Of a DNA stretch of 48,906 nucleotides, positions 3,711 to 36,368 are shown in pieces. The notes under the pieces were generated by a model that saw only the letters and a program-made list of their open reading frames with translations, made no database searches and was not told where the DNA came from. Every line of letters begins with the position of its first letter. The stretch's first letter is position 1. The position numbers and the translations under genes are program-made. The DNA is from a virus (taxonomy: Duplodnaviria > Heunggongvirae > Uroviricota > Caudoviricetes), in the IMG/VR virus record IMGVR_UViG_3300036399_001023; one strand, given 5' to 3'.

Positions 3711-3752
3711 CCCATCTTTTTATTTTACCCTTTGCGGACCAGGTTTAGGTAG

Positions 3753-8107: not shown

Positions 8108-9379
8108 TCACTCCTTCACTGCTACAAGATTGTTCTGCAAAGTGGCGTAATCATGTCTCATGCAGTTTTGCGGGCTCATCCACACAGAAGAGTACCCTTT
8201 CACCTGTGAGAACAGGTTGATAAGATTTGTATCCAGGGCACGTGTAAGCCAATCAGCCAGGGGCTGGTGGTCTGTGTGAACCACCTCTCTCAGGTCTGTG
8301 ATCTTTTCAACACGGTAAGCCCCGTCAATACTCACGTAGGCCAGTTTGCACAGAGTAACCGGTACTTCCTTTCCTGTGCTGTTCCTAACGGTTTTCGGTA
8401 CGCTGTTTTCAGGATAAGCAACTAGGTTGATAACGGAGGTTGCTGCTGCGGGCTTTCTAAGCAAGGACAGGGTACCACTCACAAGCACCCGATTGATCGC
8501 CACTTTGGTATCCGTCCATACTACTTTCCACCCACGGTTGTACGAGGGTTCAGGAATTGAAAACTTGAAGTACTGCCCGTTAGCGTCGGACGCAACGTCG
8601 GAAGAACCTTGTAAGACCCAAACCGGGTTTGAGCAATAGAGGTCGTCGCTTTCGAGGAGGTTGGACGACACATAAAGCGACGCTGAGCCTGTTACCGAGG
8701 AGCCATCGGGGCACCGTAGTTCAACTTCGGTGTAAGCGGCAGGGTGCGGGCTTTGCCACGACAGGTAGGCTTGCCCCGCGTAAGACGGGAATACACCGTC
8801 AAAGTTTCTCCACGCTTGAGACTCAAGGTCTGTGAAAGCAAAAGCGGGACTGTACCTCCACCCTGGCACAGCATCTGTGCTACTTTCTACTCTTATGTCG
8901 TATCCAGATAAGGAAAATTTATTGACAGAGTACTCAGCGACAAAGGGTGAGTCGTCGTAATAAAGTTGGTAGGCCAGAAGATACTTCGTACTTACCATTT
9001 CCATTTCTTCCAAGCTTATAATCACAGGGTCAACTGTTAAGCTCCCGTACTTCCAAACTACAACTCCGGACTGAACTGTCAGGAACTTGTTCTCCCCGGA
9101 AGACTGAACCTGAAGCGACCCTGTTCCCGTGCGGCCATCGCCCACGGGAAGGTAAGTGTAGGCAAACTCGTCGTTGAGTCCGAAGTCCAGTTTGTAAAGC
9201 TGCGAAGCCGACGGTAAACGTGCGTAGATTGGCCTCCCGTTTTCAACCCACTCAGTGGGGTGCGGGTTGAGTTTAAGCGCATCCACGTACTGGGGGGAAA
9301 GGTTCACACCCTGCTCGAAAGTGGAAGATGTTTCAATTTGCGCAGTCCCCCCGTTCAATGCGACCAGATTCTGACTCAT
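8108..9379 (-). CDS. Baseplate/tail-associated structural protein
   Basis: 423-aa ORF coupled to baseplate J (ATGA overlap). Confidence 0.5.
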   Translation of the reverse strand: MSQNLVALNGGTAQIETSSTFEQGVNLSPQYVDALKLNPHPTEWVENGRPIYARLPSASQLYKLDFGLNDEFAYTYLPVGDGRTGTGSLQVQSSGENKFLTVQSGVVVWKYGSLTVDPVIISLEEMEMVSTKYLLAYQLYYDDSPFVAEYSVNKFSLSGYDIRVESSTDAVPGWRYSPAFAFTDLESQAWRNFDGVFPSYAGQAYLSWQSPHPAAYTEVELRCPDGSSVTGSASLYVSSNLLESDDLYCSNPVWVLQGSSDVASDANGQYFKFSIPEPSYNRGWKVVWTDTKVAINRVLVSGTLSLLRKPAAATSVINLVAYPENSVPKTVRNSTGKEVPVTLCKLAYVSIDGAYRVEKITDLREVVHTDHQPLADWLTRALDTNLINLFSQVKGYSSVWMSPQNCMRHDYATLQNNLVAVKE

Positions 9380-12201
9380 AGCGCTAACGTCCCCTCTCCG
9401 TAGTTCGGCGGGCTAAGTGCAAAAGTTGTTCCCGTGTACCAGGATAAGTCAGGAATTTGACCCAGGGTTGATGTGTTTTCCCACACGTATGTTAAGCTTG
9501 GTGACGAGCTAAAGTTCCTTCCGGTGTTCCGGGGGACAACAGTTATTTGGCAGGACCCAAGCTTAATCGAGGATGTTTCCACACCGTACTGGGACAGCAC
9601 CGGCTCTTCACAGCGATAGGAAACTACGTACCGTAGTAAGTTGCCCGCGTACTCTTCGTACCTCGAAGTGTTGTCTGCGGGCAGGCCGGACCAGTTTGTT
9701 ACTGTTTTCTGGGGTGTGAATGACTTCATGACTCTGTAATAGTTCCTACCGTCTTCACTCAAGATCGTGTCTTCCGTGGCGTTCAGGTATGCGGGGTTGA
9801 AGTAAGGAATGTAGTCGTCTACGGGGAGAAGGGATGGGCCGAATTCCTCGGACTTTACGAACACGCCGTTACCTAGGTATATGCTAAAGTCGAATAAGGG
9901 GGTGACTGCGGAGGTGGCGGTGTAGGATTGCACATCGGAACCTTCTCGAAAGAACGTGCGATCACCCTGAAAAAAGGTGAACATTCTGTCAAATTTTCGC
10001 AGGAGCGGGTTGTTCGTTAGTTCTGAAGCTAGCTGAGTTTGAAGCGCAGGGTTAGGAGAAAGGTTGTAAACCACACCCTCGCTAAGCAAATCTTGTATGT
10101 TGGTGCTACTGGGGGTGAAGTGCGAAGACGCAACGTAGTAAGTGGCTGGAGAAGATGAAGTTTCCTTATACAACAGGTACTGCCCTGGCTTGAACCGAGC
10201 TTTATACTTGTACAAAGGTAATCCACCGTTCCCGTTGAACACGAGGGTCTCAGATAGGATTCCCGAATCAACAAGATTACTAAAGTACTCCTTAACAGAT
10301 AGCTGGTTTGGACTATAGGTGAAACCAGCATTTACACGGGCGTACTTCACAATTGCGCCTTTTGTTAAGTCAACGTAGTTGTAGTAAGGGTCAACAACGG
10401 GATTGGGCCCTCCCCCTACTTGGGGAGTGGAAACCCACGTTCCTTGGGCATAGGACAACCCTTCAGTGAGCTGAGCAGGAACCACGGGAAGCCCGACTAA
10501 AAACTCTGCCTGAGCACCAGTAATATCGTTGGTGGACGGGTTGAGTGTAAAGTTTTTTGAAACTAGCCAGGCAAATCCTCCTGCACGGCTATTTAAGGGT
10601 ACTGCAGAGGGACTTTGAGGAACGAACTCCCCTGATGAGTAGTCATACTCCACAATTTCAGGGTCTAGTGTACCGCCAGAGGAATATGTGAAAGAGTTTC
10701 CAATTTCCCACGGCGAAAAGGTTTTCACTGCGGAGATCTTCCCGTTCAGAATGTATGAAGAAACGGCGGAAGAAGAACCGATGCTTAAGTTTTCTAGGAC
10801 GATGTGCAACCCTTGCTGGGCTAGATCCCCGGATCCATCATGATATACTATGTCACCAAGGGAGTAGGACCCGGATGTTAGCGGTCTTATCTGTTTGAGC
10901 GTAAGGTTGCCGTATATCGTCTGATCCTTCTTGTTTGAAGAGTAGGGTGTAAAGTTTGACTCTACCGGGTAGAAAGTCGGTGCAGGGTTATTGATGAATA
11001 TAAGGTTGCCCTCTTCCAGCAGGTTGTCAGACGCGGAAAAATCGTAGATGTTTGTGTATACCGACGCGTCCTTATTGAGAGAGTTCGGAGTGTTGTAAGC
11101 GGTCGATACTTTTACAGATGGATCTTTGAATCTTGTGTTCGTGTCGAAAGTTGCGTAGAACGCTGCGTCGATGTCACTCACAGTCGGAGTCACGTTCGCA
11201 GGAAAAACCTGCCCAGGAGTCAAAACTGAGAAGAGACGGTCTCGAAAATTGAGTGCAGACTCCTTAAAGTTCGACCCGAAAGTCCCGTTGGAGTCCACTT
11301 CAACGGTTAAGTTGTACTGAACTTGGCTTAGCGTAATGGGGAATAGGTGCCCTTGATTCTCAATCGGGACAGAGAAATTTACTGCGTTTTGGCCCAGCGA
11401 CAGTTGCTGAGTTGTAAGTTCTTGACCGTTTGGCCCAAGCACGAAAAAAGACACCTGCCCATTGGGGCGAAGGTAGTCTTGTGTGTAGTTGTATCCGTAG
11501 AAGCTGGAGCGGTTCGGCTGGACAGATGTCAAAGTGCCTATGCCATACAAGTCAGTGAAAAAATCTTGCCAGTCGGACCCACTGACGGGGTTTCTCCTGC
11601 GAATTAGAGTGAAGAATCTTTCCTGAACTTCCTGAAAAGTCTCGACGTCACTTCCGCCGACAGACGGTTGAGGGTTTGTTGCGGATAAGTTGAGTGTCCC
11701 TGTGTTTGAAGTTCCGGTGATTGAGTTTGCGGGAACGTTATAGGCGGATCCTACAAACTTTGAGTAAACTGGGACTCTACCGGTGAGGTCCCCAGGCGGA
11801 ATCACCAGGTCGGAGCTTGTAACAAACTCGTAGCTTTCTCCTGCTGTTAGCTGAGGGTTCGTAGAGAATAGGGACCCTGCGGGAATAACCGTGGAGCTCT
11901 TTGTTGGCGGGACCGAAATTACCAGCTCAGCTGTTGAGGTTGTCCCAAGCCTTCTCATGGCACCTAAGAAGGGTCCGATCCACTCGATAAGGATTTTGTC
12001 AGGGAGCTGGTTGGCCCAGAACAAGAATTCTCCCTGCGCAAAAGCTTGCCCCTCAAGGAGGACTGCTAGGGGGTTTCCCGCACTGAAGTCGTTAAGGGTT
12101 TTGTTGGACGCTTCGTAAACGGTTTGAGCCGCTGCTTGGACCAAGTCAGCTTCATTGCGCGGGTCAATGGAAACCGACGGTAGCGGTGAGTAACGTGGCA
12201 T
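9376..12201 (-). CDS. Baseplate J-like wedge protein with long C-terminal extension
   Basis: N-terminal DFSAGNPLAVLLE..GAMRRLGTTSTAEL..ATNPQPSVGGSDVET..RRRNPVSGSDW typical of baseplate J; 941 aa. Confidence 0.8.
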   Translation of the reverse strand: MPRYSPLPSVSIDPRNEADLVQAAAQTVYEASNKTLNDFSAGNPLAVLLEGQAFAQGEFLFWANQLPDKILIEWIGPFLGAMRRLGTTSTAELVISVPPTKSSTVIPAGSLFSTNPQLTAGESYEFVTSSDLVIPPGDLTGRVPVYSKFVGSAYNVPANSITGTSNTGTLNLSATNPQPSVGGSDVETFQEVQERFFTLIRRRNPVSGSDWQDFFTDLYGIGTLTSVQPNRSSFYGYNYTQDYLRPNGQVSFFVLGPNGQELTTQQLSLGQNAVNFSVPIENQGHLFPITLSQVQYNLTVEVDSNGTFGSNFKESALNFRDRLFSVLTPGQVFPANVTPTVSDIDAAFYATFDTNTRFKDPSVKVSTAYNTPNSLNKDASVYTNIYDFSASDNLLEEGNLIFINNPAPTFYPVESNFTPYSSNKKDQTIYGNLTLKQIRPLTSGSYSLGDIVYHDGSGDLAQQGLHIVLENLSIGSSSAVSSYILNGKISAVKTFSPWEIGNSFTYSSGGTLDPEIVEYDYSSGEFVPQSPSAVPLNSRAGGFAWLVSKNFTLNPSTNDITGAQAEFLVGLPVVPAQLTEGLSYAQGTWVSTPQVGGGPNPVVDPYYNYVDLTKGAIVKYARVNAGFTYSPNQLSVKEYFSNLVDSGILSETLVFNGNGGLPLYKYKARFKPGQYLLYKETSSSPATYYVASSHFTPSSTNIQDLLSEGVVYNLSPNPALQTQLASELTNNPLLRKFDRMFTFFQGDRTFFREGSDVQSYTATSAVTPLFDFSIYLGNGVFVKSEEFGPSLLPVDDYIPYFNPAYLNATEDTILSEDGRNYYRVMKSFTPQKTVTNWSGLPADNTSRYEEYAGNLLRYVVSYRCEEPVLSQYGVETSSIKLGSCQITVVPRNTGRNFSSSPSLTYVWENTSTLGQIPDLSWYTGTTFALSPPNYGEGTLAL

Positions 12202-12776: not shown

Positions 12777-13220
12777 TCAGGTTCGGTCCCAAGAATTCAC
12801 GGTTAGCTGAATCTCAATTTCCTGAACATTGCCGCTTTCACGGTCAACATCGGCGGTATTAAGAGACATGAACTGACATCCGTAGCAAGTGTATTGGCCG
12901 CCAGCGGGGGCTGATCCGTTTCCAACACAGTCTTTCGGAGTGACTGTAACTGTGATTTCTCGGCAATTATACTGCAACCAGTAAATTTCCAACTGCTTGA
13001 AGATCGTGGGATCGTACGGAGCAGAAAGGGAGATGTTGTCTACCTTTTTGGGGCCTACAACTTTGTAAATACGGTTACCAGTACCATTGGCGTAGTCACT
13101 GCTACTTGAGGAATCCTTGATTCCGCTGAATTTTGTAAACGTGGCGATTAGTGTGGGTCCGTCAGGAGCTACGAAGCTAACTTCGTACTGAGACTTTGTA
13201 ATCGGTCTGAGAATAGCCAT
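12777..13220 (-). CDS. Tail tube protein (gp19-like)
   Basis: 147 aa; FTKFSG..GPKKVDNISLSAPY..YTCYGCQFMSLNTADVDRESGNVQEIEIQLTV fits the contractile-tail tube pattern; AGGAGG RBS. Confidence 0.8.
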   Translation of the reverse strand: MAILRPITKSQYEVSFVAPDGPTLIATFTKFSGIKDSSSSSDYANGTGNRIYKVVGPKKVDNISLSAPYDPTIFKQLEIYWLQYNCREITVTVTPKDCVGNGSAPAGGQYTCYGCQFMSLNTADVDRESGNVQEIEIQLTVNSWDRT

Positions 13221-16390: not shown

Positions 16391-16425
16391 AATAGATGTT
16401 TCCTTGTGTGTAAAGTTGACTTCAA

Positions 16426-22416: not shown

Positions 22417-22700
22417 CGTATTAGCCTTAAGAGTTGTGCTTCTAACTTCCGCACTCGCTTGTTCACCTCGTCTTTCGGCAGGGAGCTTTGCATAAGCTTT
22501 TGAATTTCCGTTCGCAAATCCCCATTACCCATCGAGGGGTAGAGGGATGGCTCTACGAAAACTTGATCCCCCTCAAGTAAAGAAACACAGAGTGCCTCAA
22601 TTGAGACACCCTGCTGTTTTGCTTTTCTTGTAAGTGAAAGGAAGAGTGAGTCAGGAATCTGTAGATTTACTTCCTTGTCTGTTAACTCACTCATTTTCAA
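22413..22700 (-). CDS. Ribbon-helix-helix (CopG-like) protein
   Basis: VNLQIPDSLFLSLTRKAKQQGVSIEALC RHH pattern. Confidence 0.55.
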   Translation of the reverse strand: MKMSELTDKEVNLQIPDSLFLSLTRKAKQQGVSIEALCVSLLEGDQVFVEPSLYPSMGNGDLRTEIQKLMQSSLPKDEVNKRVRKLEAQLLRLIR

Positions 22701-25700
22701 CCTAGGCCCTGAGAATCAAGTTCTCTGTTCATTTGGCCAACAGAGACGCGAATAAGATCAACCTCGATTCTTTCCAGTGTTGGTACGGGAGTGTCAAACA
22801 CCTTCACAAACACAACACCGTTCTCGAGGTTGTCTCCGCTGTTAATGCGCTCGTCACAAATCACTTGGAATGCGTCCGAGGGTCTCGCACCGAAGAGTGC
22901 ACCGGAAAGGTAAAGCTGGCTCAGAACGCTATTTCCGATGGAAACGATTTGGTTAAACACGATCCCAAATCCGTCAACAACCGAGAAGATCTGGTTGTCG
23001 AAAGCATTGCGAAGAGAACCGTAAACAACATTCTGAATCACACGAGTGTTCACAAATTGGAACTTACGCTGATCCGCAACTGCCTTGTTGATTCGAGTGC
23101 GTCCACCCCAGACGAACACCGCAGTGTTGGGGTACCCTGGCAAGGAACGAAGAACATTGCAGCCGTCAGGGTTGAGCAAGTTTTGCTGAGCCGAGTTTAC
23201 AGAAATTTGAACGCCAGCAGCGTCTGCGAGTTGGTACTTGGTACCTGCAGGGGGGAACTGGAACCCTTCGGAGCGGTAACGGCGAGCTGCGATCCCGGTC
23301 ACATACGGAGAGGGGGGAACAAATTGTCCTGCCGAGTTCTCCACGTATGGGCCGTAGAAAGCGATGAAGCCAAAGGCATTGAAGTAGCGCTGGCTGTCCT
23401 CGAATAGTCTGTTGACATTGTCAACACCCGCTTCCACAAACACAGCTTGGGGTTCGCCTGCAAATCCAACACCACGAAGTGCTTCGTCGATAATTTCGGT
23501 AGACGTGATGGTCTCGAATCTCCACAGATTTGCGCTTGGTGTTTGTTCAGGAGTGAGGGCAAATTCAACTTGTGAACCGTAACAAACAGTGGAAACTGTG
23601 CTCAAGTCACCGCCAAGGGTGTTCGCCGGCACAACAACCCAACTGTAGGATGAGCCGTCAAATGTAACCGCCAACCTGTCCCCGACAACGACTCGTGTAA
23701 CTCCGTCAGGAGCAACGGAGTTCGCCGGTGCAACCGTAACGTTAAAATAAACTCCGCTCAATTTTGAGAGAGCTGCTTGAATTGCAACTCCAGTGCTGTC
23801 AACTAGGAGACCACAAGCGGTGACGTATGGCGTTACAGAAGTAAGCGTTCCGAGGACAACAGTGGTACTTGCGCTGAAGTTTCCTCCGAAAATCGGATCA
23901 ATCACCGGGACGATGTGTGCTTCCGAGGAGAAGTTTTGGTCCACAGTGGGGGTGCAAAGAAAGTTCTCAACACTCGTTGAGGTTTCCCCAGGCCCCACAA
24001 GTTCTAAAGAGGGTAGCCACCCCGCGTTAGCAGTTTCACCGTACGGGTAGACGTGCTCCGACCCAATAACTAAGGGACTTGAGTTCAGGTACAGGGATAC
24101 AGTTGGATCGTCGTTCGCCGTGAGCAAGTTGTGATCGTACGCACGGTCTGCGATTGTACCCGAAGCCAGACCGTACTTTCTCCCTCGAACCAGCGGAACA
24201 ACGCTCAACTCTGAGAGGTTTACAGTAGTTAACCCGCCGCCTAGGACCGAAGTGTATAGGATGGTGGGACTCGTGGAAATGCTTACCATCCCAACAGGAT
24301 AGGGAACGTAAGAACCTGCAAGATAGTTTGAGCTAGAAGTTGCAAGTACAAACTTATCGGGGTCAATTACCTTAACATAATAAGCTTGTAGATTGTTTCT
24401 AACTGTCGCCTTAAACAGGGTTGCAGTGCCTGCCAGAATGGGCTTAGTAAAGAAAAGTTTCTGTCCGTTAACTAATTTGTGAGAGGTTACTCCGAAGGAA
24501 GCGGCACCGGCGTACCCTGGAGCTGTGCTTGATGAAAGCACAGTTGAGGGGTTGAAAAGTGAGCGGCTTACAAAGGACAGGCGAAGGTCGTCGGTGGTGT
24601 TCTGTAAGCTTCCCGGTAAGTGGAGAGTGTTCACAAAAGCAGGAGCACCAGTCAGATTGTGAATCAAGTTTGAGGTCTGACCCTCAATAGTTACAGGTAA
24701 ATCCCACTGGGGTGTGGTATAAGTCGCTTGAGCTGTACTTGAAGTTGGGGATGCAACACTGAATGCTCCGGAGGGAGTTAGAGGTGCGTTTAATGCAACA
24801 CTGGTACCCCCCAAGGCTGTAACTTCAGCCAGAATTGACACAGCTTGAGTAGAAGTTTGTGCGATATAAACGTATTGTACTTGTCCGTCTGAGGGGTACG
24901 TTCCGTATTGGGCACTGGAAAGTGGGGGTGCTACGAAGTACACATCAGTTGAGGTTTCTCCAAGTGGAAGTAGGGGCAGAAAATCCGCGCCAAGGCCACT
25001 CAATGTTACTCGTTGAATCTGGTAGTCTACCGGCCAAACTGTGCTTGACCCCAGGGCGAAGACTCCCCGGTTGGCTAGAGAGGCAGAGGATGTGACTGTG
25101 AACTTGGCTAAGTCTAGGAGGCCAACAGTTTCGCCCTCCGCTACTCCCTCCACTGACGACTGAACAGCAACCTTAGGGTCGTAGCCGGGAACTAGGGTCT
25201 GGTGTTTTAGACGGTCGTATGTTACTTCTTCACCCTTCCACTGATAGATGGCGTTATCAACCAGGTATAGGTTGTCGGTTACAAGGTCTTCTGCGGGCTG
25301 ATGCGGAGTGTACTCTTTGTACTTGTTTACGTCGGTAACAAGGAAGGAGCCTGGGTCTGCTGCGGCCATCCACTTAAAGTTGTTGTCCTGGCAGTGTGCG
25401 GCAGCTGCTGCTCCAACTAGGGACCGGCCTTCGGCGTCGAACTGAGCGTACGCGGTGGGAGTTACAAGGTACCCTTGGTTTGCTTGTCCATCAAAGGCAG
25501 TGTTAATACACTGAACGTAATCCTGAGGAACTCGCTCAAGATTGTTTTGAAGGCCAACGACATTTTGAATACTGTACGCGGTCTGCATTAAGACCTTTTG
25601 CGCTCCAACTGGCAGCTGCTCGGTTACTACGGAAACACTCCCGTCGTAGGTGGCTGCTGCAATTGTTACGTAGCCGCTTTCCGAGTTTGAGGAAGGGAGC

Positions 25701-26350
25701 AAATCGTTTGCGAGGCCCGAGTCACGAACGAATATGGCACTGCTTACACTTGGGTTACTTTGAATAGCTGCGGCGATTGAGCTTGAAATTGCGGCAGAAA
25801 TTTTGCGGTTATTGACCTTGTCACCGGAAATGTAATCAACAGGAATTACTGTTGGCACGCCGAGCCATTCCCCTTCGGATGTGTATCCGTTCGAGCCGTC
25901 TCCAGCAACAAGCTTCAACCCGTTTAAAATAAGCTGAGCATAAACTACGTCGCCAGCTTTAAGGGTAGATGGAAGGCCGGTGCTACTAATCTTGGAGCCC
26001 GACGGAAGAATCTCTATTTCTACAATCTGGTTTGGAGTTCCAACACGAACGACTCGAAGATCGCCAACTTGCGCATTCAAAAAGAATGCATTCACACAGT
26101 TGTAGCTAAGGAGGGGAATACGAGTTTCGGGAACTTTCCCTACCAAGGCTTTGTAGTCGGTCAGTGAAGATACTGGAACTGGTGTGTTGAAGGGGAAACG
26201 TGCGACAGTGACGTCTTCCTCAGTTTCAACCAACATGTAAGTTGTGTTGAACGAGGCAATACCTGCGGAAGCTACATTTCCAACACGCTCGTTGATATAT
26301 GTACCTGGTGCTCCGGGGACGATACCGGTGCCGAAAGAAAAAGTTGCCAT
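22697..26350 (-). CDS. Tail sheath protein (~1217 aa, large insertions)
   Basis: N-terminal GAPGTYINE; C-terminal PPSPYVTG..FPPAG..NVLRSLPG..VWGGRT..FVNTRVI..LYLSGALFG..AFQVICDE; start moved to ATG 26350 (AGGAGG RBS) from the track start at 26422. Confidence 0.88.
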   Translation of the reverse strand: MATFSFGTGIVPGAPGTYINERVGNVASAGIASFNTTYMLVETEEDVTVARFPFNTPVPVSSLTDYKALVGKVPETRIPLLSYNCVNAFFLNAQVGDLRVVRVGTPNQIVEIEILPSGSKISSTGLPSTLKAGDVVYAQLILNGLKLVAGDGSNGYTSEGEWLGVPTVIPVDYISGDKVNNRKISAAISSSIAAAIQSNPSVSSAIFVRDSGLANDLLPSSNSESGYVTIAAATYDGSVSVVTEQLPVGAQKVLMQTAYSIQNVVGLQNNLERVPQDYVQCINTAFDGQANQGYLVTPTAYAQFDAEGRSLVGAAAAAHCQDNNFKWMAAADPGSFLVTDVNKYKEYTPHQPAEDLVTDNLYLVDNAIYQWKGEEVTYDRLKHQTLVPGYDPKVAVQSSVEGVAEGETVGLLDLAKFTVTSSASLANRGVFALGSSTVWPVDYQIQRVTLSGLGADFLPLLPLGETSTDVYFVAPPLSSAQYGTYPSDGQVQYVYIAQTSTQAVSILAEVTALGGTSVALNAPLTPSGAFSVASPTSSTAQATYTTPQWDLPVTIEGQTSNLIHNLTGAPAFVNTLHLPGSLQNTTDDLRLSFVSRSLFNPSTVLSSSTAPGYAGAASFGVTSHKLVNGQKLFFTKPILAGTATLFKATVRNNLQAYYVKVIDPDKFVLATSSSNYLAGSYVPYPVGMVSISTSPTILYTSVLGGGLTTVNLSELSVVPLVRGRKYGLASGTIADRAYDHNLLTANDDPTVSLYLNSSPLVIGSEHVYPYGETANAGWLPSLELVGPGETSTSVENFLCTPTVDQNFSSEAHIVPVIDPIFGGNFSASTTVVLGTLTSVTPYVTACGLLVDSTGVAIQAALSKLSGVYFNVTVAPANSVAPDGVTRVVVGDRLAVTFDGSSYSWVVVPANTLGGDLSTVSTVCYGSQVEFALTPEQTPSANLWRFETITSTEIIDEALRGVGFAGEPQAVFVEAGVDNVNRLFEDSQRYFNAFGFIAFYGPYVENSAGQFVPPSPYVTGIAARRYRSEGFQFPPAGTKYQLADAAGVQISVNSAQQNLLNPDGCNVLRSLPGYPNTAVFVWGGRTRINKAVADQRKFQFVNTRVIQNVVYGSLRNAFDNQIFSVVDGFGIVFNQIVSIGNSVLSQLYLSGALFGARPSDAFQVICDERINSGDNLENGVVFVKVFDTPVPTLERIEVDLIRVSVGQMNRELDSQGLG

Positions 26351-26448
26351 TTGGGTAGATTCCTCCTTTTCCTTACCTTTGTGCCGGCGAGGATAAGTCC
26401 GGCGGTGGTGCCCGTAGGCCAAAGGTTTAGGGTGTATACCTAGAGGTT

Positions 26449-27236: not shown

Positions 27237-27647
27237 TTAATTGAGAATGTGTTTCCAGGCAATTCCTGAAAGTTTTTCGAGAGATGACTTAGGCACCCCC
27301 ATCCACGGCCTTGCAGCCATGTTTTTTGTACCAAACTGGTGGTAGGGTCCTACACTAGTTGTAAGGACCGCAAAGCGATCGTTTTTAAGGTAAGATAAGA
27401 CTTTTGCAGTATCCTGCATCTTTCCTGTTACCCTGAGGATTGGGAGATCGCCGTACCGTTGTCTTTTCCAAGCACGGTACTGTGTTGTAAGTGGGCGCCA
27501 GGCTCGACCGTTCGTGTCAGTCTGGTTTTTCCAGTACGGTTTGTTTTCGTTTAGGAGTACAGGGGCCCACTCCAGTTTTGTGGGCTCCCACCAGTTCGGG
27601 TTGAATGGCTCACCTCTGAAAGGTGTTCTTAGGCTAAACTTGAACAT
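27237..27647 (-). CDS. Virion morphogenesis protein (Mu gpG / P2 gpS-like)
   Basis: GRAWRPLT..PILRVTGKM..YHQFGTKNMAARPWMG. Confidence 0.8.
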   Translation of the reverse strand: MFKFSLRTPFRGEPFNPNWWEPTKLEWAPVLLNENKPYWKNQTDTNGRAWRPLTTQYRAWKRQRYGDLPILRVTGKMQDTAKVLSYLKNDRFAVLTTSVGPYHQFGTKNMAARPWMGVPKSSLEKLSGIAWKHILN

Positions 27648-28725: not shown

Positions 28726-29628
28726 TCAGTGGTTGTCGCTCCAGCCAGTGGTCGTACCCCCCCCCCTTTTTAACCCCTTCTCTATACGGGTCTTTTCTAT
28801 CTCCTCAACAAAAGCAGAAGGGGTTAGGTCGTGTAAAGACTCCCAAGGTAAACTCCAGGACTCTTTTCCATCCCCAATTGCAAACTGCTTAGTTAAACTG
28901 TTGTAGTCCGATATACCTGAACTCCCAAGGGTGTTGAGCAGGAGTAACTTCACAGCATCTCTAATTTGCGCATCGGTCAAGTAAGTGTTGAATCTTGTGT
29001 TGGGATACAAACGCAAGTAGGTCTCTAACTCTTCGGCTGACTTATGAGTAAGCCGCCATTTACCCTCTTTCACCACAAGTACAAGTCGGTGGGATTCTTC
29101 TGACGACGGGTGAACCCATGTGGAACCATCTATGTAGGATCCTGAAGGTGGGTGGTTGCTGTCGCCGCTCTCGTGCGCCAGAATTGTAACAGCTTTTGTG
29201 GGTGGTAGGGCGAAGTAATTCCAAGGGGTGTACGCTAGCTCTGTCGCCACACCACTCCCTCCCGCGCCACCGGACCCGTGTCTAAGACTCACCGGAGGGG
29301 AAATATAAGTTTGGTCAAGTACGGGGACCCAGTTTGAGCTTCTCGCAGTCTCCATCCAAATATACGTCCTATCGTCAGTGGGGCAGTAGAATACTTGCCC
29401 CTTCCGGGGGTTTGGAGGAAAATTTAGAGTTTTATCAAGTGTTGTGTGAGTGCCTTTCCCGTAGTTTTCCAAGTCGGCGATAGACGTGGTCGGGTTATAC
29501 ACCCACTCAAGAAAGTCGTCACAGCTTTCTAAAAACTCGATAGAGCTACCCGAATCTGCGCAAACTGAGTCCCTTTTATCAGAACCAAACCCCAACCACT
29601 TTAGTAGCTTTTCTAAGTAGTGTCCCAC
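28726..29628 (-). CDS. Hypothetical protein; C-terminus depends on a G10 tract
   Basis: 300-aa ORF; homopolymer at 28757-28766. Confidence 0.55.
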   Translation of the reverse strand: MGHYLEKLLKWLGFGSDKRDSVCADSGSSIEFLESCDDFLEWVYNPTTSIADLENYGKGTHTTLDKTLNFPPNPRKGQVFYCPTDDRTYIWMETARSSNWVPVLDQTYISPPVSLRHGSGGAGGSGVATELAYTPWNYFALPPTKAVTILAHESGDSNHPPSGSYIDGSTWVHPSSEESHRLVLVVKEGKWRLTHKSAEELETYLRLYPNTRFNTYLTDAQIRDAVKLLLLNTLGSSGISDYNSLTKQFAIGDGKESWSLPWESLHDLTPSAFVEEIEKTRIEKGLKRGGGTTTGWSDNH

Positions 29629-29645: not shown

Positions 29646-29855
29646 TTATAGAGAACGAAGCATGCGAATTGCATCACCTTGGGAGAAGTACTCTTGTGAA
29701 TACAAACAGTCCACAGACGACGGGATGAATCTTCCGTTCTTGTCAAACGGGATCGGCCACCAGTACATGCCTACTTTTGTTCTGCATGGGTATATGTCTG
29801 CGGATTGAACTCGTGGCTTTTTGATCTTGATGGGTGTTTTCATAGTTAGTCTCAA
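29646..29855 (-). CDS. Small hypothetical protein
   Basis: 69 aa, coupled to the polymerase stop. Confidence 0.5.
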   Translation of the reverse strand: MRLTMKTPIKIKKPRVQSADIYPCRTKVGMYWWPIPFDKNGRFIPSSVDCLYSQEYFSQGDAIRMLRSL

Positions 29856-32782
29856 ATCAGTCCTTTTTGAATAGCTTCGTATCGTGTCTTTAGCTTGTCT
29901 ACAGCCCCAGTCTCACCGAGTTCGGTCATCGAGTACTCAACTCCGTTAGGTTCTTTCGCACCGTGGGGGTTTGAAGGTGTAACCGTACACTCTTTCGGGG
30001 ATTTACGAATCCGAGAGTCAATTGCTACTGAGGAGAAGAACGCACGACTAAGTGGAAGCTCCGGTATATCCATCGCGCTGTGAAAATTCGCCCAGGTATA
30101 AAGGTGGGCGATTTGGAACAGCACGGCAAACTGAGTGGCGTACCTCTCAGGGGTCATGAAGTGGAGTTCATCATGGATGCTGATAATGAAGCGGTAGGGG
30201 ATTTTGTACTCTTCCGCTAGCCACGCGACAGCCGTGAGCGTTATAGATAGAATTTCGGCACCCGATGCTTGAATGGCCCAGTTTGTGCGTCCTGTCCTAA
30301 ATTCGGTGCCAACTGCCGCAGGTCGCATTGCAGTGGAAATTTTGGTACCAAGGCAAGGCAGCTGAGGAACCTTTGTCTTCATGGAGATTTGCTCCATCAA
30401 GTTGAATGCGCCGGAGTCAGAACCACCTTCATACACTCCGTTCACCAGTACCCCCTTTTTCGATGACAGTGCTTTCAGTGCGAAATCCTTAACTTCTCTC
30501 TCCCCTTTCTCAGGAAAAGTTCGTCGAATTGGAGTGCTTAGGGCTCTTACGCTACCTCCGTACAAGGTTGCGAAGCCTACAATCTTGCTCAGGTCTCTGG
30601 CTTTTGCCAGAAGTTTGTACAACTGGGGTTCAATTGGGCTTAACCAATTTTCTCCAGCCTTTACACAATTTGGTACATTCAACGGTTCACTCTCATGACT
30701 GTAACAAATTCCTAGCTTCCTGTCCCACACAAGCCCCTTATACATCTCAGGGAGAATAGCACGAGCAAGAGCGGTGTGAGGATCAGTGCCGTTTTCCTTG
30801 GACCCAGACAGGACGTTGTACCCCATCGGCGAGCACCCGACAAAGCCACCTTCCCAAGTATCGCTGTATATGGATGCGATCTGAAGCTCTTGACCATCGT
30901 AGTCGGCGCTTACAATTTTCCAGCCTTCGGGGGCCTGCACTCGTGTTTTCAACTCCGTGCCAATTCTCCAGTTTTTCGTGGAGCACATGGTTGCCATCAA
31001 GCTTTCAACTGTTCTGCGAGTTACCGTTCCGTGGCAGAGAATCTCAGGAAGAGTCACCAGGGCGGATGAACCATGCGGGTTTTCAGCGCGGAGGAAGATC
31101 CGGTCCATCACCCGCTTACGAACAGAAGTCCAGTAAGAAATAGCGTTTGAAATCTCCAGAGCTCTCTTAGCTTCAGGGAGATCGCTACTTAGCCTCCCGG
31201 TTTCCATATCTTGGACAAAGTCCTTGCTGAGTAACACTCCGGTATTGTCTCCAGTTCCTTTTGGGTGGGGAACTTTCACAAGGCCACCCGTTCCATCGTA
31301 GTAGCACCAACCCTCTGTTTTGGTTTGAATAATAGGTGATCCCTCATATTTGAGCTTCAACAGCAAGTGCGCCAATTGCGACTTGACTCCGATGTGCTGT
31401 TGCGGGTCTTTCACAAAGGGTTGCACCCAGGAGGGAACCCAAGCGTACTTGCCTTTTCTGCTCCGAATCTCCCAGTTAAGCTGGGACACCCAGGGGTCAT
31501 GTTCTGCCCATTTCTGCGCTTTCGCGAGGCCCCGCTCCGGGTCCTCCACGCTGTTAAGGACAGCCTTCCACTCGTTGTACGTTTTCCACACAAGCTCCCT
31601 GCATAGCTCAGTCATTTCCTGGCTGTGCTCATGAAACACTCTTTCTGTGTTCTGAATCCACTCAGCCCAGTCTTCCACCAAGGGGACGACTGATCCGTTC
31701 AGGTGGTAGTGACCACAAAGTCCAACCATTGACGGTGTACTATCAAGATACTTCGGCCACAAAGCCTGAAAAAGCTCCGCCGTGTAAAAAGCATCCCTTA
31801 CCGCGTATTCTACGGCCTTCTCAAGAACTGCGGTGATTTGCGAGATATGCGTAGCGTCTACAAAAATGTCCCGTACCTTTTTGTCCCCTTGGTTGAGTGG
31901 GCGGACAGTGTCATCGCCGAAGTACTTACGAACCTCGTAAACGTGAAAGTTGTAGCATTGCACCAAACTGTTTGTTGATCCCTCGTCTAGCCACTTTGGA
32001 GCATACCTGAGTTTTCTCTTTTCCTCTTCAGTTAGGTTTTCTGGGTCTTTTGCCGCAAGAAGGTACAACCACCGTTGACCTGAAGCCAAACCCGACACTC
32101 CGATATGCGCGGAGAGTGTGTCAAAGTAGAAGTTTTCAGGCTTGTTACGGCTTAGTGAGTATCCTTCCCGTGTTCTTACTCGGTCGTAGCTAATATTGTG
32201 TCCCGCTACAAACCTGTTCTCACCAATGGGAATGAGATCGTGTTGGTCCCACTCTTCCTCCGGTATGGTTGGGTCAATAAGCTCTGCCGCGAGCCAAATG
32301 TAGGTTGCTTTTTCACTTAGCGCCGTCCCAATAATCGGAAACGCACCCGCTTTCACGAAGGTTTCAGTGTCGTACGTGAAAGCTTCTTCGAGTGGGTATG
32401 GTACGGATTCTACAAGAAACTTTCCGTCCACAAACTCATAGCGTGTCCATCCCGCCTGATAGACGAAGTCAGAAACTGCAGGGAGCTTTGGAAGTTTGCA
32501 TCTCGCTAGAGAATTTGCAAGGTTTTTGTACACCCCTACCTGCTCTGTTGCTATGTTTTCAAAGTGCTCCTGTAAATTGCTACCCCTTAAGCTTGGAAGG
32601 GGCAAGGGACCATCGTACAGGTTGTCTGGGTGATCAACAGGGACAGATATACCAAATTGCTTTAAGAGTCGCTCGGCCTTTTGACGTGCCTTAACTCCCA
32701 TTGAAGCTGCCTTTTGTCTGCCGAAAACCTTAGTGTGCAGTGGGGTAGACAGAACAGGGTAGCCGAGTTCGCTGGTTCTCAT
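29852..32782 (-). CDS. Family A DNA polymerase, mitochondrial Pol gamma-like
   Basis: Exo I YDTETF, Exo II GHNISYDR, Exo III YAVRDA, motif A SADYDGQEL, motif B RDLSKIVGFATLYG, motif C ISIHDEL, plus Pol-gamma-specific blocks (GTVTRRTVE, RIGTELK, AFFSSVAID, TPSNPHG). Confidence 0.92.
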   Translation of the reverse strand: MRTSELGYPVLSTPLHTKVFGRQKAASMGVKARQKAERLLKQFGISVPVDHPDNLYDGPLPLPSLRGSNLQEHFENIATEQVGVYKNLANSLARCKLPKLPAVSDFVYQAGWTRYEFVDGKFLVESVPYPLEEAFTYDTETFVKAGAFPIIGTALSEKATYIWLAAELIDPTIPEEEWDQHDLIPIGENRFVAGHNISYDRVRTREGYSLSRNKPENFYFDTLSAHIGVSGLASGQRWLYLLAAKDPENLTEEEKRKLRYAPKWLDEGSTNSLVQCYNFHVYEVRKYFGDDTVRPLNQGDKKVRDIFVDATHISQITAVLEKAVEYAVRDAFYTAELFQALWPKYLDSTPSMVGLCGHYHLNGSVVPLVEDWAEWIQNTERVFHEHSQEMTELCRELVWKTYNEWKAVLNSVEDPERGLAKAQKWAEHDPWVSQLNWEIRSRKGKYAWVPSWVQPFVKDPQQHIGVKSQLAHLLLKLKYEGSPIIQTKTEGWCYYDGTGGLVKVPHPKGTGDNTGVLLSKDFVQDMETGRLSSDLPEAKRALEISNAISYWTSVRKRVMDRIFLRAENPHGSSALVTLPEILCHGTVTRRTVESLMATMCSTKNWRIGTELKTRVQAPEGWKIVSADYDGQELQIASIYSDTWEGGFVGCSPMGYNVLSGSKENGTDPHTALARAILPEMYKGLVWDRKLGICYSHESEPLNVPNCVKAGENWLSPIEPQLYKLLAKARDLSKIVGFATLYGGSVRALSTPIRRTFPEKGEREVKDFALKALSSKKGVLVNGVYEGGSDSGAFNLMEQISMKTKVPQLPCLGTKISTAMRPAAVGTEFRTGRTNWAIQASGAEILSITLTAVAWLAEEYKIPYRFIISIHDELHFMTPERYATQFAVLFQIAHLYTWANFHSAMDIPELPLSRAFFSSVAIDSRIRKSPKECTVTPSNPHGAKEPNGVEYSMTELGETGAVDKLKTRYEAIQKGLI

Positions 32783-32831: not shown

Positions 32832-33698
32832 TTAGGGCTTCCTGTAAACAGGTCGTGCCAGAATGACTGGGGGCTTCACTTCTTCCTCGGGGGCTCCGGA
32901 GTCGAATTTGTGCATTTTTAGGTCGAAAGCTCGAACACCGCTGCTTGTGTAAACAGCGTCTTTGTGAAGCTTGTAGGTTTCGTAGGCGTCGAAAATCGGT
33001 GAGAAGTGTAGGGGTCGCTCACCCGGTTCGTCACGCCACATTAGAATCTCAACAAGAGAGATCGGGACGTCTGTGTCCCATTGTTCGTCTCGTTGCCCGT
33101 AAAGCAAAGGAAGAGCGTCGTTCCTCCACCAGTCTGTAACTTGGTCTATGTATTGCTCCCATGCGTCGGGATCTGTGACGTGAGTTTTGCAGTCTTCTCT
33201 TAGGTATGCAACGTACTGCCTCCCCCGGTCAATCACAACTTGTGCAGACTCTGGGAGAGTTTCCATGAAGTACGCGGGGTCGTCAGACGATGCAACTCTT
33301 TCTATCACAGCCGGGAAGAGGAAGGAGTAGCTCATTAGCCTAAAGTCGTCTGCTCCTTCGCAGATATGCCTCAGAAGGCACTCGATAATGGCAAGTGTTG
33401 ACGCTATTCCGAGCTCTGTCTCGTCCTCTAAAGGAGATTCAGGGGGGAGTGACTCTTTCACTTGTTTTCGAAGCTTGGTAAGTTCAAGCTCAAGACGCCT
33501 CACCTCGCGACCCATTTCCCGTTCTAGCTTAGCCTTGTATATCTCAGTTTGCGTTAAAAGCTTGTCAAACTTTGTATCAATTTTTTCTACTTCCGAACTG
33601 AGTTGTTCGATGCTGATCTTGAAATTTGATATTTTTTTCTTAAGTGAAGAAACCGAAGACCTCATGCTATCGGTTGCAAACACTATGTTATCCATCAT
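32832..33698 (-). CDS. Hypothetical protein with N-terminal coiled coil
   Basis: 288-aa ORF. Confidence 0.6.
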   Translation of the reverse strand: MMDNIVFATDSMRSSVSSLKKKISNFKISIEQLSSEVEKIDTKFDKLLTQTEIYKAKLEREMGREVRRLELELTKLRKQVKESLPPESPLEDETELGIASTLAIIECLLRHICEGADDFRLMSYSFLFPAVIERVASSDDPAYFMETLPESAQVVIDRGRQYVAYLREDCKTHVTDPDAWEQYIDQVTDWWRNDALPLLYGQRDEQWDTDVPISLVEILMWRDEPGERPLHFSPIFDAYETYKLHKDAVYTSSGVRAFDLKMHKFDSGAPEEEVKPPVILARPVYRKP

Positions 33699-33710
33699 GG
33701 GTGTTTCGCT

Positions 33711-34268
33711 TTAAAGGGGTTTGATTTTGGCTTCTAAGTGGTCAGACTCAGGGTCTACTGAGGTTATTGTAAAGGAAAACCTTTTGTCGGGGTCCGATCG
33801 AAGGTGAAAACTACCGGAGAATCCTTCCCCGTCTTTTAAACTTAAGAAGCTGTTTCCCGGTGTTGGGGGGTGCTCGAACGAAATATCGTCTTTGAGCTCC
33901 GGGTGGGAGTCTTCGATTGCTGAGATGAGCCGGTTGTTCACTGCAGATGCTGTCGCCAACTCAAACTCGGTGGAAATTTGAGGGTGGAAACCGTCTTCTG
34001 TAACTTCGAGTTTGAACGACGCACCCGTGTCAAAGTAGATATGGTAAACAAGCCCGTCCTCCTCAACTTCAAAGCACGCCTCTTCTGCGGAAAACTCACA
34101 TTCTTCGTCAGGAGACCCGTTAATTTCTACTTCCAGGAGTTCGTAAAAAACGTCTCTCAGTACCTCTGCATCTAGAACTCCTCCCAAATGATTTGAGATA
34201 GCTAGGAAAATTCGGGGGTTTGAAAGTAACCTGGAAACCGGATAGACTACAGTCATGGTTCTGTTCAA
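33711..34268 (-). CDS. Hypothetical acidic protein
   Basis: 185-aa ORF. Confidence 0.6.
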   Translation of the reverse strand: MNRTMTVVYPVSRLLSNPRIFLAISNHLGGVLDAEVLRDVFYELLEVEINGSPDEECEFSAEEACFEVEEDGLVYHIYFDTGASFKLEVTEDGFHPQISTEFELATASAVNNRLISAIEDSHPELKDDISFEHPPTPGNSFLSLKDGEGFSGSFHLRSDPDKRFSFTITSVDPESDHLEAKIKPL

Positions 34269-34346: not shown

Positions 34347-36368
34347 CTAAGGTAGTTTCACCTCATCTATATTTGCGACTTTAATTCCTTTGCCCCCCGG
34401 CTTCCCGAGCTTTACTGACAGGTCGAGTTTCATTGCCTTCTTTCGAGTTGAAACCCAGTCCAGGGTGAAACCCCCCTCTCCAAAGTGCCTCAGTGTGGAA
34501 CCTTCGGGTAGCCATCTCTTGCCTTTACTCGTCACCTTGCAAAGGTCTTCTCCGCTCAGGGTCAGTGCTTTGAGCTGCCCGTCGAGTTCGAGCACAACTA
34601 AGTATTTTTTCAAGGAAACCTCAGACTCCTTCTTCGCCAAGCAAACAGCGGAGTACGCTGTTGAGATAACTCCCTTGAAGGTTGCTGACACCTTTTTCAG
34701 TGTCCCGTCCTCAGTCATAAGAATAACCTTGTCTTTGGGGTCTACGACAAGAGCTCCACGTGGCCCTTTCACCTGCTCAACAGTGCCCTTCTTCGAGTCA
34801 ATCTTCAGGAACCGTGGCTTTGGAGCGGCTGCAGGACGCTTCACGCTTTCCCCAGGAACACGGGCCACACCACCAGTCGGGGGGTCTATGAGGGCGCTTC
34901 TGCGAGCCTCTCCGTGGCGCTTTCCTATTTCAGTGAGCTCATTGAGCATATACACTTGTCTCGCGGTAGTCCCACTGGTTTCGTCGCTGGACAGCTCTAC
35001 CAGCTCTTGAATCCGGCCTTGAAGGTAGTTATCCTCAACAATAAGGTCGTTTTGGTCAAGGTTCGTAAGCTGACGCAAGCGCATATCCAGAATGGCCTCA
35101 GCTTGCTTATCTGAGAACTTCAGCGGTGCGGTCGTTAGAGCAACTTTCGCCTCAGATTTATCCTTTGCCGCACGAATCCGCTTAATAATCAAGTCCATCT
35201 TGTCAATGGCCTTGAGCAGTCCCTGAACAATTTCCAGGCGAGCCTCTCGATGAGTGAGCTCATTCTCGAATTTAACTTGTAATCTACCCAACCTCCATGT
35301 CACCCATTTCTCTACAATTTCCACCGGGGAGAGCTCTATGGGCTTCGTGCCATCGATAACTAAGGTTCTCGCTGAGAACTTGGAGTCAAGGTCGGTGTAG
35401 GCATAAAGTTGATCTCTTAGCTTTTCCGGGCTCACACCGGGCTTGGCCACAATTTGAACGCAGTCCCCCGTAAGATCGGACAGGTCATTGACTTCAGCGA
35501 CACCATCAATCCTTCCCTTCTCAACCTCATTTTTCACTTGCTCACCGATTTTCTCAGGATTGGTTCCTGGCGGTAAGTTCGTAAAGGTTAAGGAAGGACG
35601 GTCCTTTGCCTTTCCACTACGGGTCTGGGTACCAATCTCAACCTTCGCCATGCAGCGAATGCTGCCAATACCTGTTAGTGAGTATTGCTCCAACTGATCG
35701 TCTTTTACAATCTGGGTCCCAGTTGGAAAGTCAGGGAAGAGAACCTCCCGTGCTTTTCGTAGGTTTTCTGCGCGTGCCTCAAACGTTATCGCTTCCTTGC
35801 AAACTAGCTTGGTTGCTTCAACAATCGAACGGAGACTGTGAGAGGCGATTTTACAGGCGTATCCCACGCCAATGCCCTCTTGACCATTGAGCAAAACGTA
35901 AGGGATCTTTGCGTTCAACTCGATCGGCTCCTGCAGCGTACCGTCGTAGTTTGGCATGGTCTCCCAGGTGTCTGAGTCGTCGAGGAGGCAGTCCCAGGCA
36001 AAAGGGGAGAGCTTGCACTCTGTGTACCTTGACGACGCCGCAGAGTCTGTCGAAGACCCCCAATTCCCGTGCCCGTCTACGAGCGGGGCCATATTATTCC
36101 ACGGAGCAGCCAAAGTGACAATAGAGCTGTAGCTTCCGCCGTGGGGGCTCAATTTACCCATAACCTCCCCCTCTACCCTGGCGCTTTTCATGTAGCGACC
36201 GTCTGGCTTCAAGTTGAGCCACTTCATAGCTGTTACAATGCGCCGAGAGATACTCTTGCACCCGTCCGTGTACCGAGGGAAGGCTCGCCCCACGATTACA
36301 CTGAGCGAGTAGGCAAGGTAGTCGTCTTGAATTTGCTGGACTAGGTTTACATTGACAGTGTTTGTCAT
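34347..36368 (-). CDS. Type IIA topoisomerase A subunit (GyrA/ParC family)
   Basis: GRAFP..DGCK..RR..KSARVEGEVMGK.SPHG..DGHGNWGS..AASSRYTE (catalytic Tyr)..QAEAILDMRLRQLT. Confidence 0.92.
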   Translation of the reverse strand: MTNTVNVNLVQQIQDDYLAYSLSVIVGRAFPRYTDGCKSISRRIVTAMKWLNLKPDGRYMKSARVEGEVMGKLSPHGGSYSSIVTLAAPWNNMAPLVDGHGNWGSSTDSAASSRYTECKLSPFAWDCLLDDSDTWETMPNYDGTLQEPIELNAKIPYVLLNGQEGIGVGYACKIASHSLRSIVEATKLVCKEAITFEARAENLRKAREVLFPDFPTGTQIVKDDQLEQYSLTGIGSIRCMAKVEIGTQTRSGKAKDRPSLTFTNLPPGTNPEKIGEQVKNEVEKGRIDGVAEVNDLSDLTGDCVQIVAKPGVSPEKLRDQLYAYTDLDSKFSARTLVIDGTKPIELSPVEIVEKWVTWRLGRLQVKFENELTHREARLEIVQGLLKAIDKMDLIIKRIRAAKDKSEAKVALTTAPLKFSDKQAEAILDMRLRQLTNLDQNDLIVEDNYLQGRIQELVELSSDETSGTTARQVYMLNELTEIGKRHGEARRSALIDPPTGGVARVPGESVKRPAAAPKPRFLKIDSKKGTVEQVKGPRGALVVDPKDKVILMTEDGTLKKVSATFKGVISTAYSAVCLAKKESEVSLKKYLVVLELDGQLKALTLSGEDLCKVTSKGKRWLPEGSTLRHFGEGGFTLDWVSTRKKAMKLDLSVKLGKPGGKGIKVANIDEVKLP

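Follow-up and report, generated by a model that had tools for sequence, protein, structure and literature searches.

Outside the eukaryotes, the mitochondrial replicase has no known relatives other than the phage homologues of DNA polymerase gamma (Pol gamma), which therefore bear on a phage origin of the opisthokont mitochondrial replication enzymes. Pol gamma itself has been reported to be exclusive to opisthokonts (PMC10877234). The gene has been described in the siphoviruses A-HIS1/2 (Chan 2011), in the cyanomyophages S-TIM5 (Sabehi et al. 2012) and S-CBWM1 (Xu et al. 2018), and in Mic1 (PMC7156551). The 'mitochondrial-like DNA polymerase' is the signature gene of TIM5-like myoviruses (PMC10087341), and 'several cyanophages' have been placed in the Pol gamma cluster of family A (PMC10201439). 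Here we describe a further member, encoded on a 48,906-nt stretch of Caudoviricetes DNA (IMG/VR record IMGVR_UViG_3300036399_001023); the whole stretch is hereafter called the window. The original prediction, made from the sequence alone, had called the product a Pol gamma-like DNA polymerase of a contractile-tailed phage, stating that Pol gamma is restricted to opisthokonts and that A-HIS1/2 carry homologues; this background is right according to PMC10877234 and PMC7156551, but incomplete. Our analysis indicates that the gene very probably encodes the phage's own replicative DNA polymerase, a proofreading enzyme of the Pol gamma lineage in an uncultured, S-CBWM1-like lineage of cyanophages. 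The gene, an open reading frame (ORF), and the parts of its product are located as follows.

29852..32782, (-): Pol-gamma-family DNA polymerase gene (P0001), identified by its ORF, PF18136, human POLG, PHROG 22619, AlphaFold2 (AF2) and Foldseek
31748..32602, (-): 3'-5' exonuclease domain of the mitochondrial-polymerase type, residues 61-345 (PF18136)
31271..31471, (-): minimal spacer between the exonuclease/thumb half and the polymerase half, residues 438-504, 67 aa
30875..30922, (-): motif A, residues 621-636, with catalytic D627/E632 (invariant columns in the alignment)
30599..30775, (-): lineage-specific fingers insertion directly before the O-helix, residues 670-728
30557..30598, (-): motif B / O-helix, with R729, K733, F737 and Y741 (alignment)
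30164..30187, (-): motif C, with H870, D871 and E872 (nearly invariant columns)

Sequence and structure place the product in the Pol gamma family

The gene is a single uninterrupted ORF of 976 codons (29852-32782, minus strand), with a product of 976 aa. We use Pol gamma family sensu lato, i.e. cluster 2 of Czernecki et al. or CDD cd08641, with Pfam families PF18136 and PF00476 and with PHROG 22619. PF18136, the DNA mitochondrial polymerase exonuclease domain, matches residues 61-345 with an E-value of 3.1e-62 (210.7 bits against a cut-off of 26.7 bits), covering profile positions 6-282 of 282. The family A profile PF00476 matches at 1e-9 in the motif C region (Pfam), and PHROG 22619 matches at 5e-218. 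Using phmmer against PDB sequences, human POLG chains were retrieved at 3e-99 and yeast Mip1 (9c51) at 8e-97; the significant matches were Pol gamma chains only, with Klenow reaching just E 0.009. No 5_3_exonuc domain was found in the 976-aa protein by the Pfam search, and no Rfam family lies inside the gene.

The Pol gamma-specific motif blocks on which the original prediction had relied were all found, once each and in the predicted order. By protein residue, these are GHNISYDR (194-201), FDTLSAHIGVSG (220-231), QR (236-237), DPWVSQLNW (429-437), LKYEGSP (477-483), GW.Y (491-494), VPHPKG (504-509), NTG (513-515), SKDF (519-522), EISNAISYW (543-551), GTVTRRTVE (585-593), RIGTELK (606-612), VQAPEG (615-620), GTDPH (665-669), AFFSSVAID (914-922), RK (926-927) and TPSNPHG (935-941). 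They go far beyond chance, because the PF18136, human POLG and PHROG 22619 matches are as strong as given above.

The structural comparison gives the same assignment. An AF2 model of the polymerase was built from 72 homologues, with a mean predicted local distance difference test score (pLDDT) of 93.1 and a predicted template modelling score (pTM) of 0.91. When this model was compared with the PDB using Foldseek, the first 36 chains were all Pol gamma, with E-values down to 2e-61. The template modelling (TM) scores were 0.80-0.82 for human and mouse Pol gamma A (0.80 for 8d33_A) and 0.76 for yeast Mip1, and 0.30-0.37 for the best non-gamma family A structures (G20c Pol I, Klenow and Pol theta). 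No T7 gp5 structure was among the best 50 Foldseek matches.

Phylogeny and relation to the mitochondrial enzymes

Homologues were collected by searching 1.84 billion cluster representatives exhaustively and without a profile, which returned 1397 matches, 444 of them at E <1e-30; six long representatives are named as fungal or animal Pol gamma. Trees were computed with FastTree (140 rows) and with IQ-TREE under LG+C20 with posterior mean site frequencies (PMSF; 46 rows, 875 columns), and the paired support values below are those of IQ-TREE; FastTree gave the same groupings. A Pol gamma superclade of 44 rows is split from T7 gp5 and Klenow at 97/97, and the path from the superclade to T7 gp5 exceeds 6 changes per site. 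Branching with Pol I or T7-like polymerases, the outcome named in advance as speaking against the original prediction, was thus looked for in the tree and not found.

These results bear on the alternative that the protein is an ordinary family A polymerase of the Pol I or T7 type, with gamma-like motifs that arose by convergence or are generic. All family A enzymes do have motifs A, B and C in common, and the motif B Phe is as in Pol I. However, the NCBIfam Pol I equivalogs (PRK05755 / TIGR00593) scored 20.1 bits against a cut-off of 720 and 16.5 bits against 600, with the match confined to residues 833-887, and Klenow was barely detected by phmmer. TM scores of at most 0.37 to any non-gamma structure and the T7/Klenow split at 97/97 point the same way. 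The phmmer, tree, Foldseek and NCBIfam results refute this identity, which we consider to have practically no chance of being correct. The 976-aa protein is a member of the Pol gamma family, neither Pol I nor T7-like, and the proposed Pol gamma identity was borne out by profile search (PF18136), phylogeny and structure comparison (TM 0.80 against at most 0.37) alike.

Within the superclade, the eukaryotic Pol gammas form one clade (100/100), and the window enzyme lies outside it. The window enzyme and S-CBWM1 are sisters (99/98), in a 15-row clade that also holds S-TIM5 (100/99); together with A-HIS-like lines, these 15 rows make up a 25-row phage clade (96/95). Mic1-like sequences, three phage-like lines (compact phage-type contigs) and the eukaryotic clade meet in a basal polytomy. 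Forcing the eukaryotes together with the 15-row clade, a grouping chosen after the tree was known, costs 203 log-likelihood units and is rejected by the approximately unbiased (AU) test (p 1.65e-31). In these trees, the nearest phage neighbours of the eukaryotic enzymes are not in the S-CBWM1/S-TIM5-type myovirus clade; Mic1-like sequences and a few other lines are better candidates for that position. The suggestion that the carrier of the window widens the viral pool from which mitochondria may have acquired Pol gamma is not upheld on this count.

The direction of transfer could also have been the reverse: if a phage captured the gene from a eukaryote, the gene would be silent on a viral origin of the mitochondrial enzyme. 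This would fit the root of the superclade, where Mic1-like and the three phage-like lines stand in a polytomy with the eukaryotes, and the very long outgroup branches of 5-6 changes per site. On the other hand, deep phage-like lineages are many, accounting for ~68 of the best 150 clusters at 50% identity, and the eukaryotes form one tight clade. The window enzyme is only ~26-33% identical to the eukaryotic enzymes and sits within the 25-row phage clade, and its simple spacer and tail-less architecture would look ancestral rather than reduced. We therefore regard capture from a eukaryote as highly improbable.

Conserved active sites, a short spacer and a fingers insertion

Alignments of 72 and 128 homologues show little or no variation at the exonuclease residues D138/E140 (Exo I), D200 (Exo II) and Y326/D330 (Exo III), or at the polymerase residues D627, E632, R729, K733, Y741, H870, D871 and E872. 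With all catalytic residues of both activities kept, the protein appears equipped as an active proofreading polymerase would be, and the enzyme is apparently functional.

The exonuclease half and the polymerase half are joined by a very short spacer. Measured as the segment between the conserved W437 and P505, the spacer is 67 aa in the window enzyme; the fungal representatives identified by name have ~100-135 aa, and fish and tardigrade have 254-258 aa. Human POLG residues ~462-716 have no counterpart in the window enzyme according to phmmer. The accessory-interacting determinant of human POLG is reported to be part of this segment (Lee et al. 2009). Because the accessory-binding part of the spacer is absent and no class II synthetase-like gene was found in the near-identical genome examined below, the enzyme may act as a single subunit, like yeast Mip1.

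Deviations at the spacer position were seen among the relatives. In the locus L033 (IMGVR_UViG_3300033571_013339), whose polymerase is 66% identical, an interruption falls exactly at the short spacer, after residue ~495, and divides the gene into ORFs of 502 and ~430 aa. These are in different frames on either side of a 258-aa HNH endonuclease ORF (7175-7951), within L033:5733-9243, and no Rfam intron was found in the interrupted gene. The locus has either an intron that escaped recognition or a polymerase that is naturally made in two pieces. Two further phage-clade polymerases, P0151 and P0168, reach 1225 and 1254 aa, against ~890 aa in the sisters with which they group. In P0168 the spacer position is occupied by 261 aa; both polymerases may carry inteins or other inserts.

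In family A enzymes, the Phe/Tyr site of motif B governs dideoxynucleotide discrimination (the Tabor-Richardson rule). The window enzyme has Phe737 at a position that is presumably equivalent to Y951 of human POLG, the first aromatic residue of motif B, and that holds Tyr in every eukaryotic-clade representative of the alignment and in S-TIM5 and Mic1. Phe737 is therefore predicted to make the enzyme discriminate against dideoxynucleotides, unlike human Pol gamma. The loss of this Tyr has also been stated for S-CBWM1 and A-HIS1/2 (PMC7156551).

A further distinctive element is the fingers insertion. The interval from H669 to R729 comprises 59 aa in the window enzyme and 10 in nearly all relatives, eukaryotic or viral, giving an insert of ~49 aa. 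The insert was modelled by AF2 as four beta strands (684-716), with a block pLDDT of 83-92. In the alignment of near relatives its ends are conserved and its middle is variable; it is shorter in S-CBWM1 and missing from many relatives at 65-70% identity.

The polymerase is the only DNA polymerase detected in a near-identical genome

The gene inventory was taken from the IMG/VR record G001 (277,244 bp, CheckV 98% complete), in which the window corresponds to positions 158294-208416 at 95-97% nucleotide identity; further relatives are contigs of 279 kb and 201 kb. The polymerase occurs once in G001, and no long stretch of the record is duplicated internally. On these grounds, we rejected the possibility that G001 is a dimeric assembly of a ~139-kb genome. 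A ~300-bp segment of the window (3416-3730) matches G001 at ~167.7, ~205.1 and ~218.8 kb with 86-95% identity, and is thus a dispersed repeat.

The polymerase gene is the sole PF00476 match in G001, and the profiles for PolB and PolIII-alpha found nothing there, although their controls were detected. G001 also encodes a DUF5906-type primase-helicase homologue, 56% identical to the 'putative DNA primase' of S-CBWM1, and two flap endonuclease (FEN)-type nucleases. Within the sensitivity of family searches, to which all absences in G001 are limited, neither DnaB_C (DnaB/Twinkle-type helicase), classical single-stranded DNA-binding protein (SSB) families, any clamp family, nor the class II aminoacyl-tRNA synthetase core / HGTP_anticodon (Pol gamma B-like) was found. 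The 'mitochondrial' type is thus confined to the polymerase and does not extend to the rest of the replication set. The polymerase would work with the D5/DUF5906-type primase-helicase and the FEN-type nucleases, rather than with a Twinkle/T7 gp4-type helicase.

We assign the role of replicase because this is the sole DNA polymerase detectable in G001. Family A enzymes such as Pol I serve repair in cells, and this precedent, together with the lack of a detected DnaB-type helicase, SSB or clamp family in G001, would be consistent with a repair or gap-filling polymerase in a phage whose genome is copied by the host replisome. However, no other DNA polymerase was detected in the 277-kb relative, the gene is universally conserved across the clade in synteny with a topoisomerase, and a primase-helicase homologue and FEN nucleases are phage-encoded. 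The closest characterised homologues, Pol gamma and Mip1, are moreover replicases. A repair role is thus quite improbable.

Several points nevertheless weigh against the replicase assignment as formulated here. The gene inventory comes from the 95-97% identical G001 and not from the window's own full genome, divergent helicases, SSBs and clamps can escape family searches, and host polymerases could contribute to phage replication. Single-subunit action would follow from absences only. The search for a T7-type RNA polymerase gave no match in G001, but its control matched in no genome either.

A contractile-tailed carrier with a conserved replication block

The genes around the polymerase comprise a replication block on the upstream side and a structural region on the downstream side.

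34347..36368, (-): type II topoisomerase subunit A (GyrA/ParC-like), PF00521 9.5e-92, PHROG 551 2e-96
32832..34268, (-): two conserved genes of 288 aa and 185 aa (orf288 and orf185), between topoisomerase and polymerase
29646..29843, (-): conserved 65-aa ORF, with its ATG 9 nt past the polymerase stop
27237-27647, same strand as the polymerase and downstream of it: tail completion protein
22697..26422, (-): tail sheath, 1241 aa, PHROG 17610 7e-44, PHROG 23 4e-25, Pfam Phage_sheath_1 2.5e-6
20478-21977, same strand as the polymerase and downstream of it: Mu-type portal, PF06074 5e-71
12777..13220, (-): tail tube protein, PHROG 35249 5e-5, PHROG 5102 3e-4
9376..12201, (-): Baseplate J-like wedge protein, PF04865 3.9e-14, PHROG 6 3e-23

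A head protease gene is also located downstream of the polymerase on the same strand. Because sheath, tube, Baseplate_J, tail completion and Mu-type portal genes are all present, with the Phage_sheath_1 match to the 1241-aa sheath falling just below the Pfam cut-off, a contractile tail is indicated. It is supported that the carrier, known here from its genes alone, is a contractile-tailed (myovirus-type) cyanophage; the contractile tail in the original prediction is in line with the PHROG 17610, PHROG 35249 and PF04865 matches.

The order gyrA-like, orf185, orf288, pol, small ORF and tail completion is common to 27 related IMG/VR loci, as far as their contigs reach, and to S-CBWM1 gp73-gp81. 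In the related loci the same order runs on to sheath, portal and protease, again as far as each reaches. The GyrA/ParC-like gene, syntenic with S-CBWM1 gp73, is the upstream member of the conserved replication block, and orf185 and orf288 keep their place in every related locus and in S-CBWM1 (gp75/gp76); their products are candidate components of a replication module. The orf288 product has an N-terminal coiled coil and the orf185 product is acidic. Immediately after pol, every related locus and S-CBWM1 (gp78) carry the 65-aa ORF. Its length is 65 aa in 14 of 15 distinct sequences and 62 aa in L033, with 13 invariant residues; the protein is basic, with an invariant core P..D K ... IPSSV.C. 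Searches of the 65-aa ORF, orf185 and orf288 against Pfam, NCBIfam, PHROG and Atlas returned coiled-coil noise or nothing.

This conserved neighbourhood raises the question of a partner. T7 gp5 uses host thioredoxin, and the window enzyme might likewise be the catalytic core of a holoenzyme, in which copying a ~277-kb genome needs the 65-aa protein, the upstream orf185/orf288 or a host protein; the fingers insertion could be the docking site. The constant position of the 65-aa ORF directly after pol, its invariant residues and its length, fixed except in one locus, speak for such a partner, as do the equal synteny of orf185 and orf288 and the lineage-specific, structured ~49-aa insert with its variable middle. 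On the other side, adjacency alone is weak evidence, the 65-aa, 185-aa and 288-aa neighbours match no family, and relatives without the insert retain the same neighbours. Yeast Mip1 is processive alone (Viikov 2011, cited in PMC10201439). We give the holoenzyme a minor chance. A bolder proposal, to which we assign only a small one, is that a Pol gamma with the shortest known spacer serves as sole polymerase of a ~277-kb genome, ~50% above any published Pol-gamma phage genome, and that the beta insert and/or the 65-aa protein is a new processivity or template-handling device, replacing Pol gamma B or thioredoxin by other means. The reading we favour remains a replicative, proofreading Pol gamma-lineage polymerase encoded by the phage itself.

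Further features of the window lie outside this block. Just downstream of it, a 300-aa ORF (28726-29628, (-)) shows only 71-79% identity to relatives in which the flanking genes are 97-100% identical, and it is absent or barely recognisable in more distant loci; it is thus a local hypervariable gene. Using Rfam, five group I introns were found within 3 kb (13447-16395, (-)), at 13447-13731, 14367-14642, 14674-14924, 15190-16093 and 16152-16395, the fourth of which holds a homing endonuclease ORF (15214-15930). The introns lie in and around the gene of the major capsid protein; the ORF visible there (13692-14333) accounts for only a part of the PHROG major-head profile.

Comparison with known systems

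The phage branch of Pol gamma is far richer than the 'several cyanophages' of the reviews, with ~68 phage-like clusters in the best 150 and >120 close relatives, and it extends to genomes of 277-279 kb. In the large protein database these >120 relatives are 63-98% identical to the window enzyme, many of them auto-named 'DNA polymerase gamma 1'. Megablast of the polymerase gene against GenBank phages gave no match, and relatives emerged at the protein level only: tblastn found S-CBWM1 gp77 ('DNA polymerase gamma') at 56.6% identity over the full length, the S-TIM5 group at ~34%, A-HIS1/2 at ~30% and Mic1 at 30%. The original prediction had held that a myovirus-type carrier widens the viral pool. 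This does not stand, because S-TIM5 (2012) and S-CBWM1 (2018) were already published as myoviruses with Pol gamma (PMC7156551, PMC10087341), and the window phage is a collinear relative of the latter. The window gene is a well-supported addition to a known group, not a new carrier type. Its novelty is modest and consists of the ~277-kb genome size in the carrier lineage, the insert in the fingers and the 65-aa gene conserved downstream. Being compact and accessory-free in architecture, the enzyme would serve well as a minimal model for Pol gamma biochemistry.

Compared with human POLG (8d33/3ikm) and yeast Mip1 (9c51), the window enzyme shares the fold (TM 0.76-0.82), the Pol gamma-type exonuclease and the catalytic residues. 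It differs in sequence (25-27% identity), in that the two mitochondrial enzymes have a longer spacer, Tyr at the dideoxy-sensitivity site and no beta insert before the O-helix, and in being without the long fungal C-terminal extension. Relative to the mitochondrial set as a whole, no Pol gamma B-like or Twinkle-like gene was detected in G001.

Among phages, A-HIS1/A-HIS2 of Acaryochloris and Mic1 of Microcystis have polymerases of the same family with their domains in the same order; those of A-HIS1/A-HIS2 also share the motif B Phe and carry an insertion at the corresponding place in the fingers. Unlike the window phage, all of these are siphovirus carriers, with polymerases of ~30% identity; the gene of Mic1 is intron-split, and its group is nearer the eukaryotic clade, outside the 25-row clade of the window enzyme. 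S-TIM5 (Aurunvirus) shares the myovirus carrier, the 15-row clade and the short spacer, but is 34% identical, with Tyr in motif B and no fingers insertion. The closest described system is S-CBWM1 (Aokuangvirus), whose gp77 is the sister in the tree and comes from a myovirus with the same gene order; it has Phe in motif B, and its fingers insertion is of the same kind but 16 aa shorter than that of the window enzyme. Of 107 ORFs from 92 kb of S-CBWM1, ~50 have collinear homologues in G001. However, protein identities between the two are only 25-75%, so the window phage belongs to at least a different genus, and at 277 kb G001 is about twice as large as the 139-kb genome of S-CBWM1.

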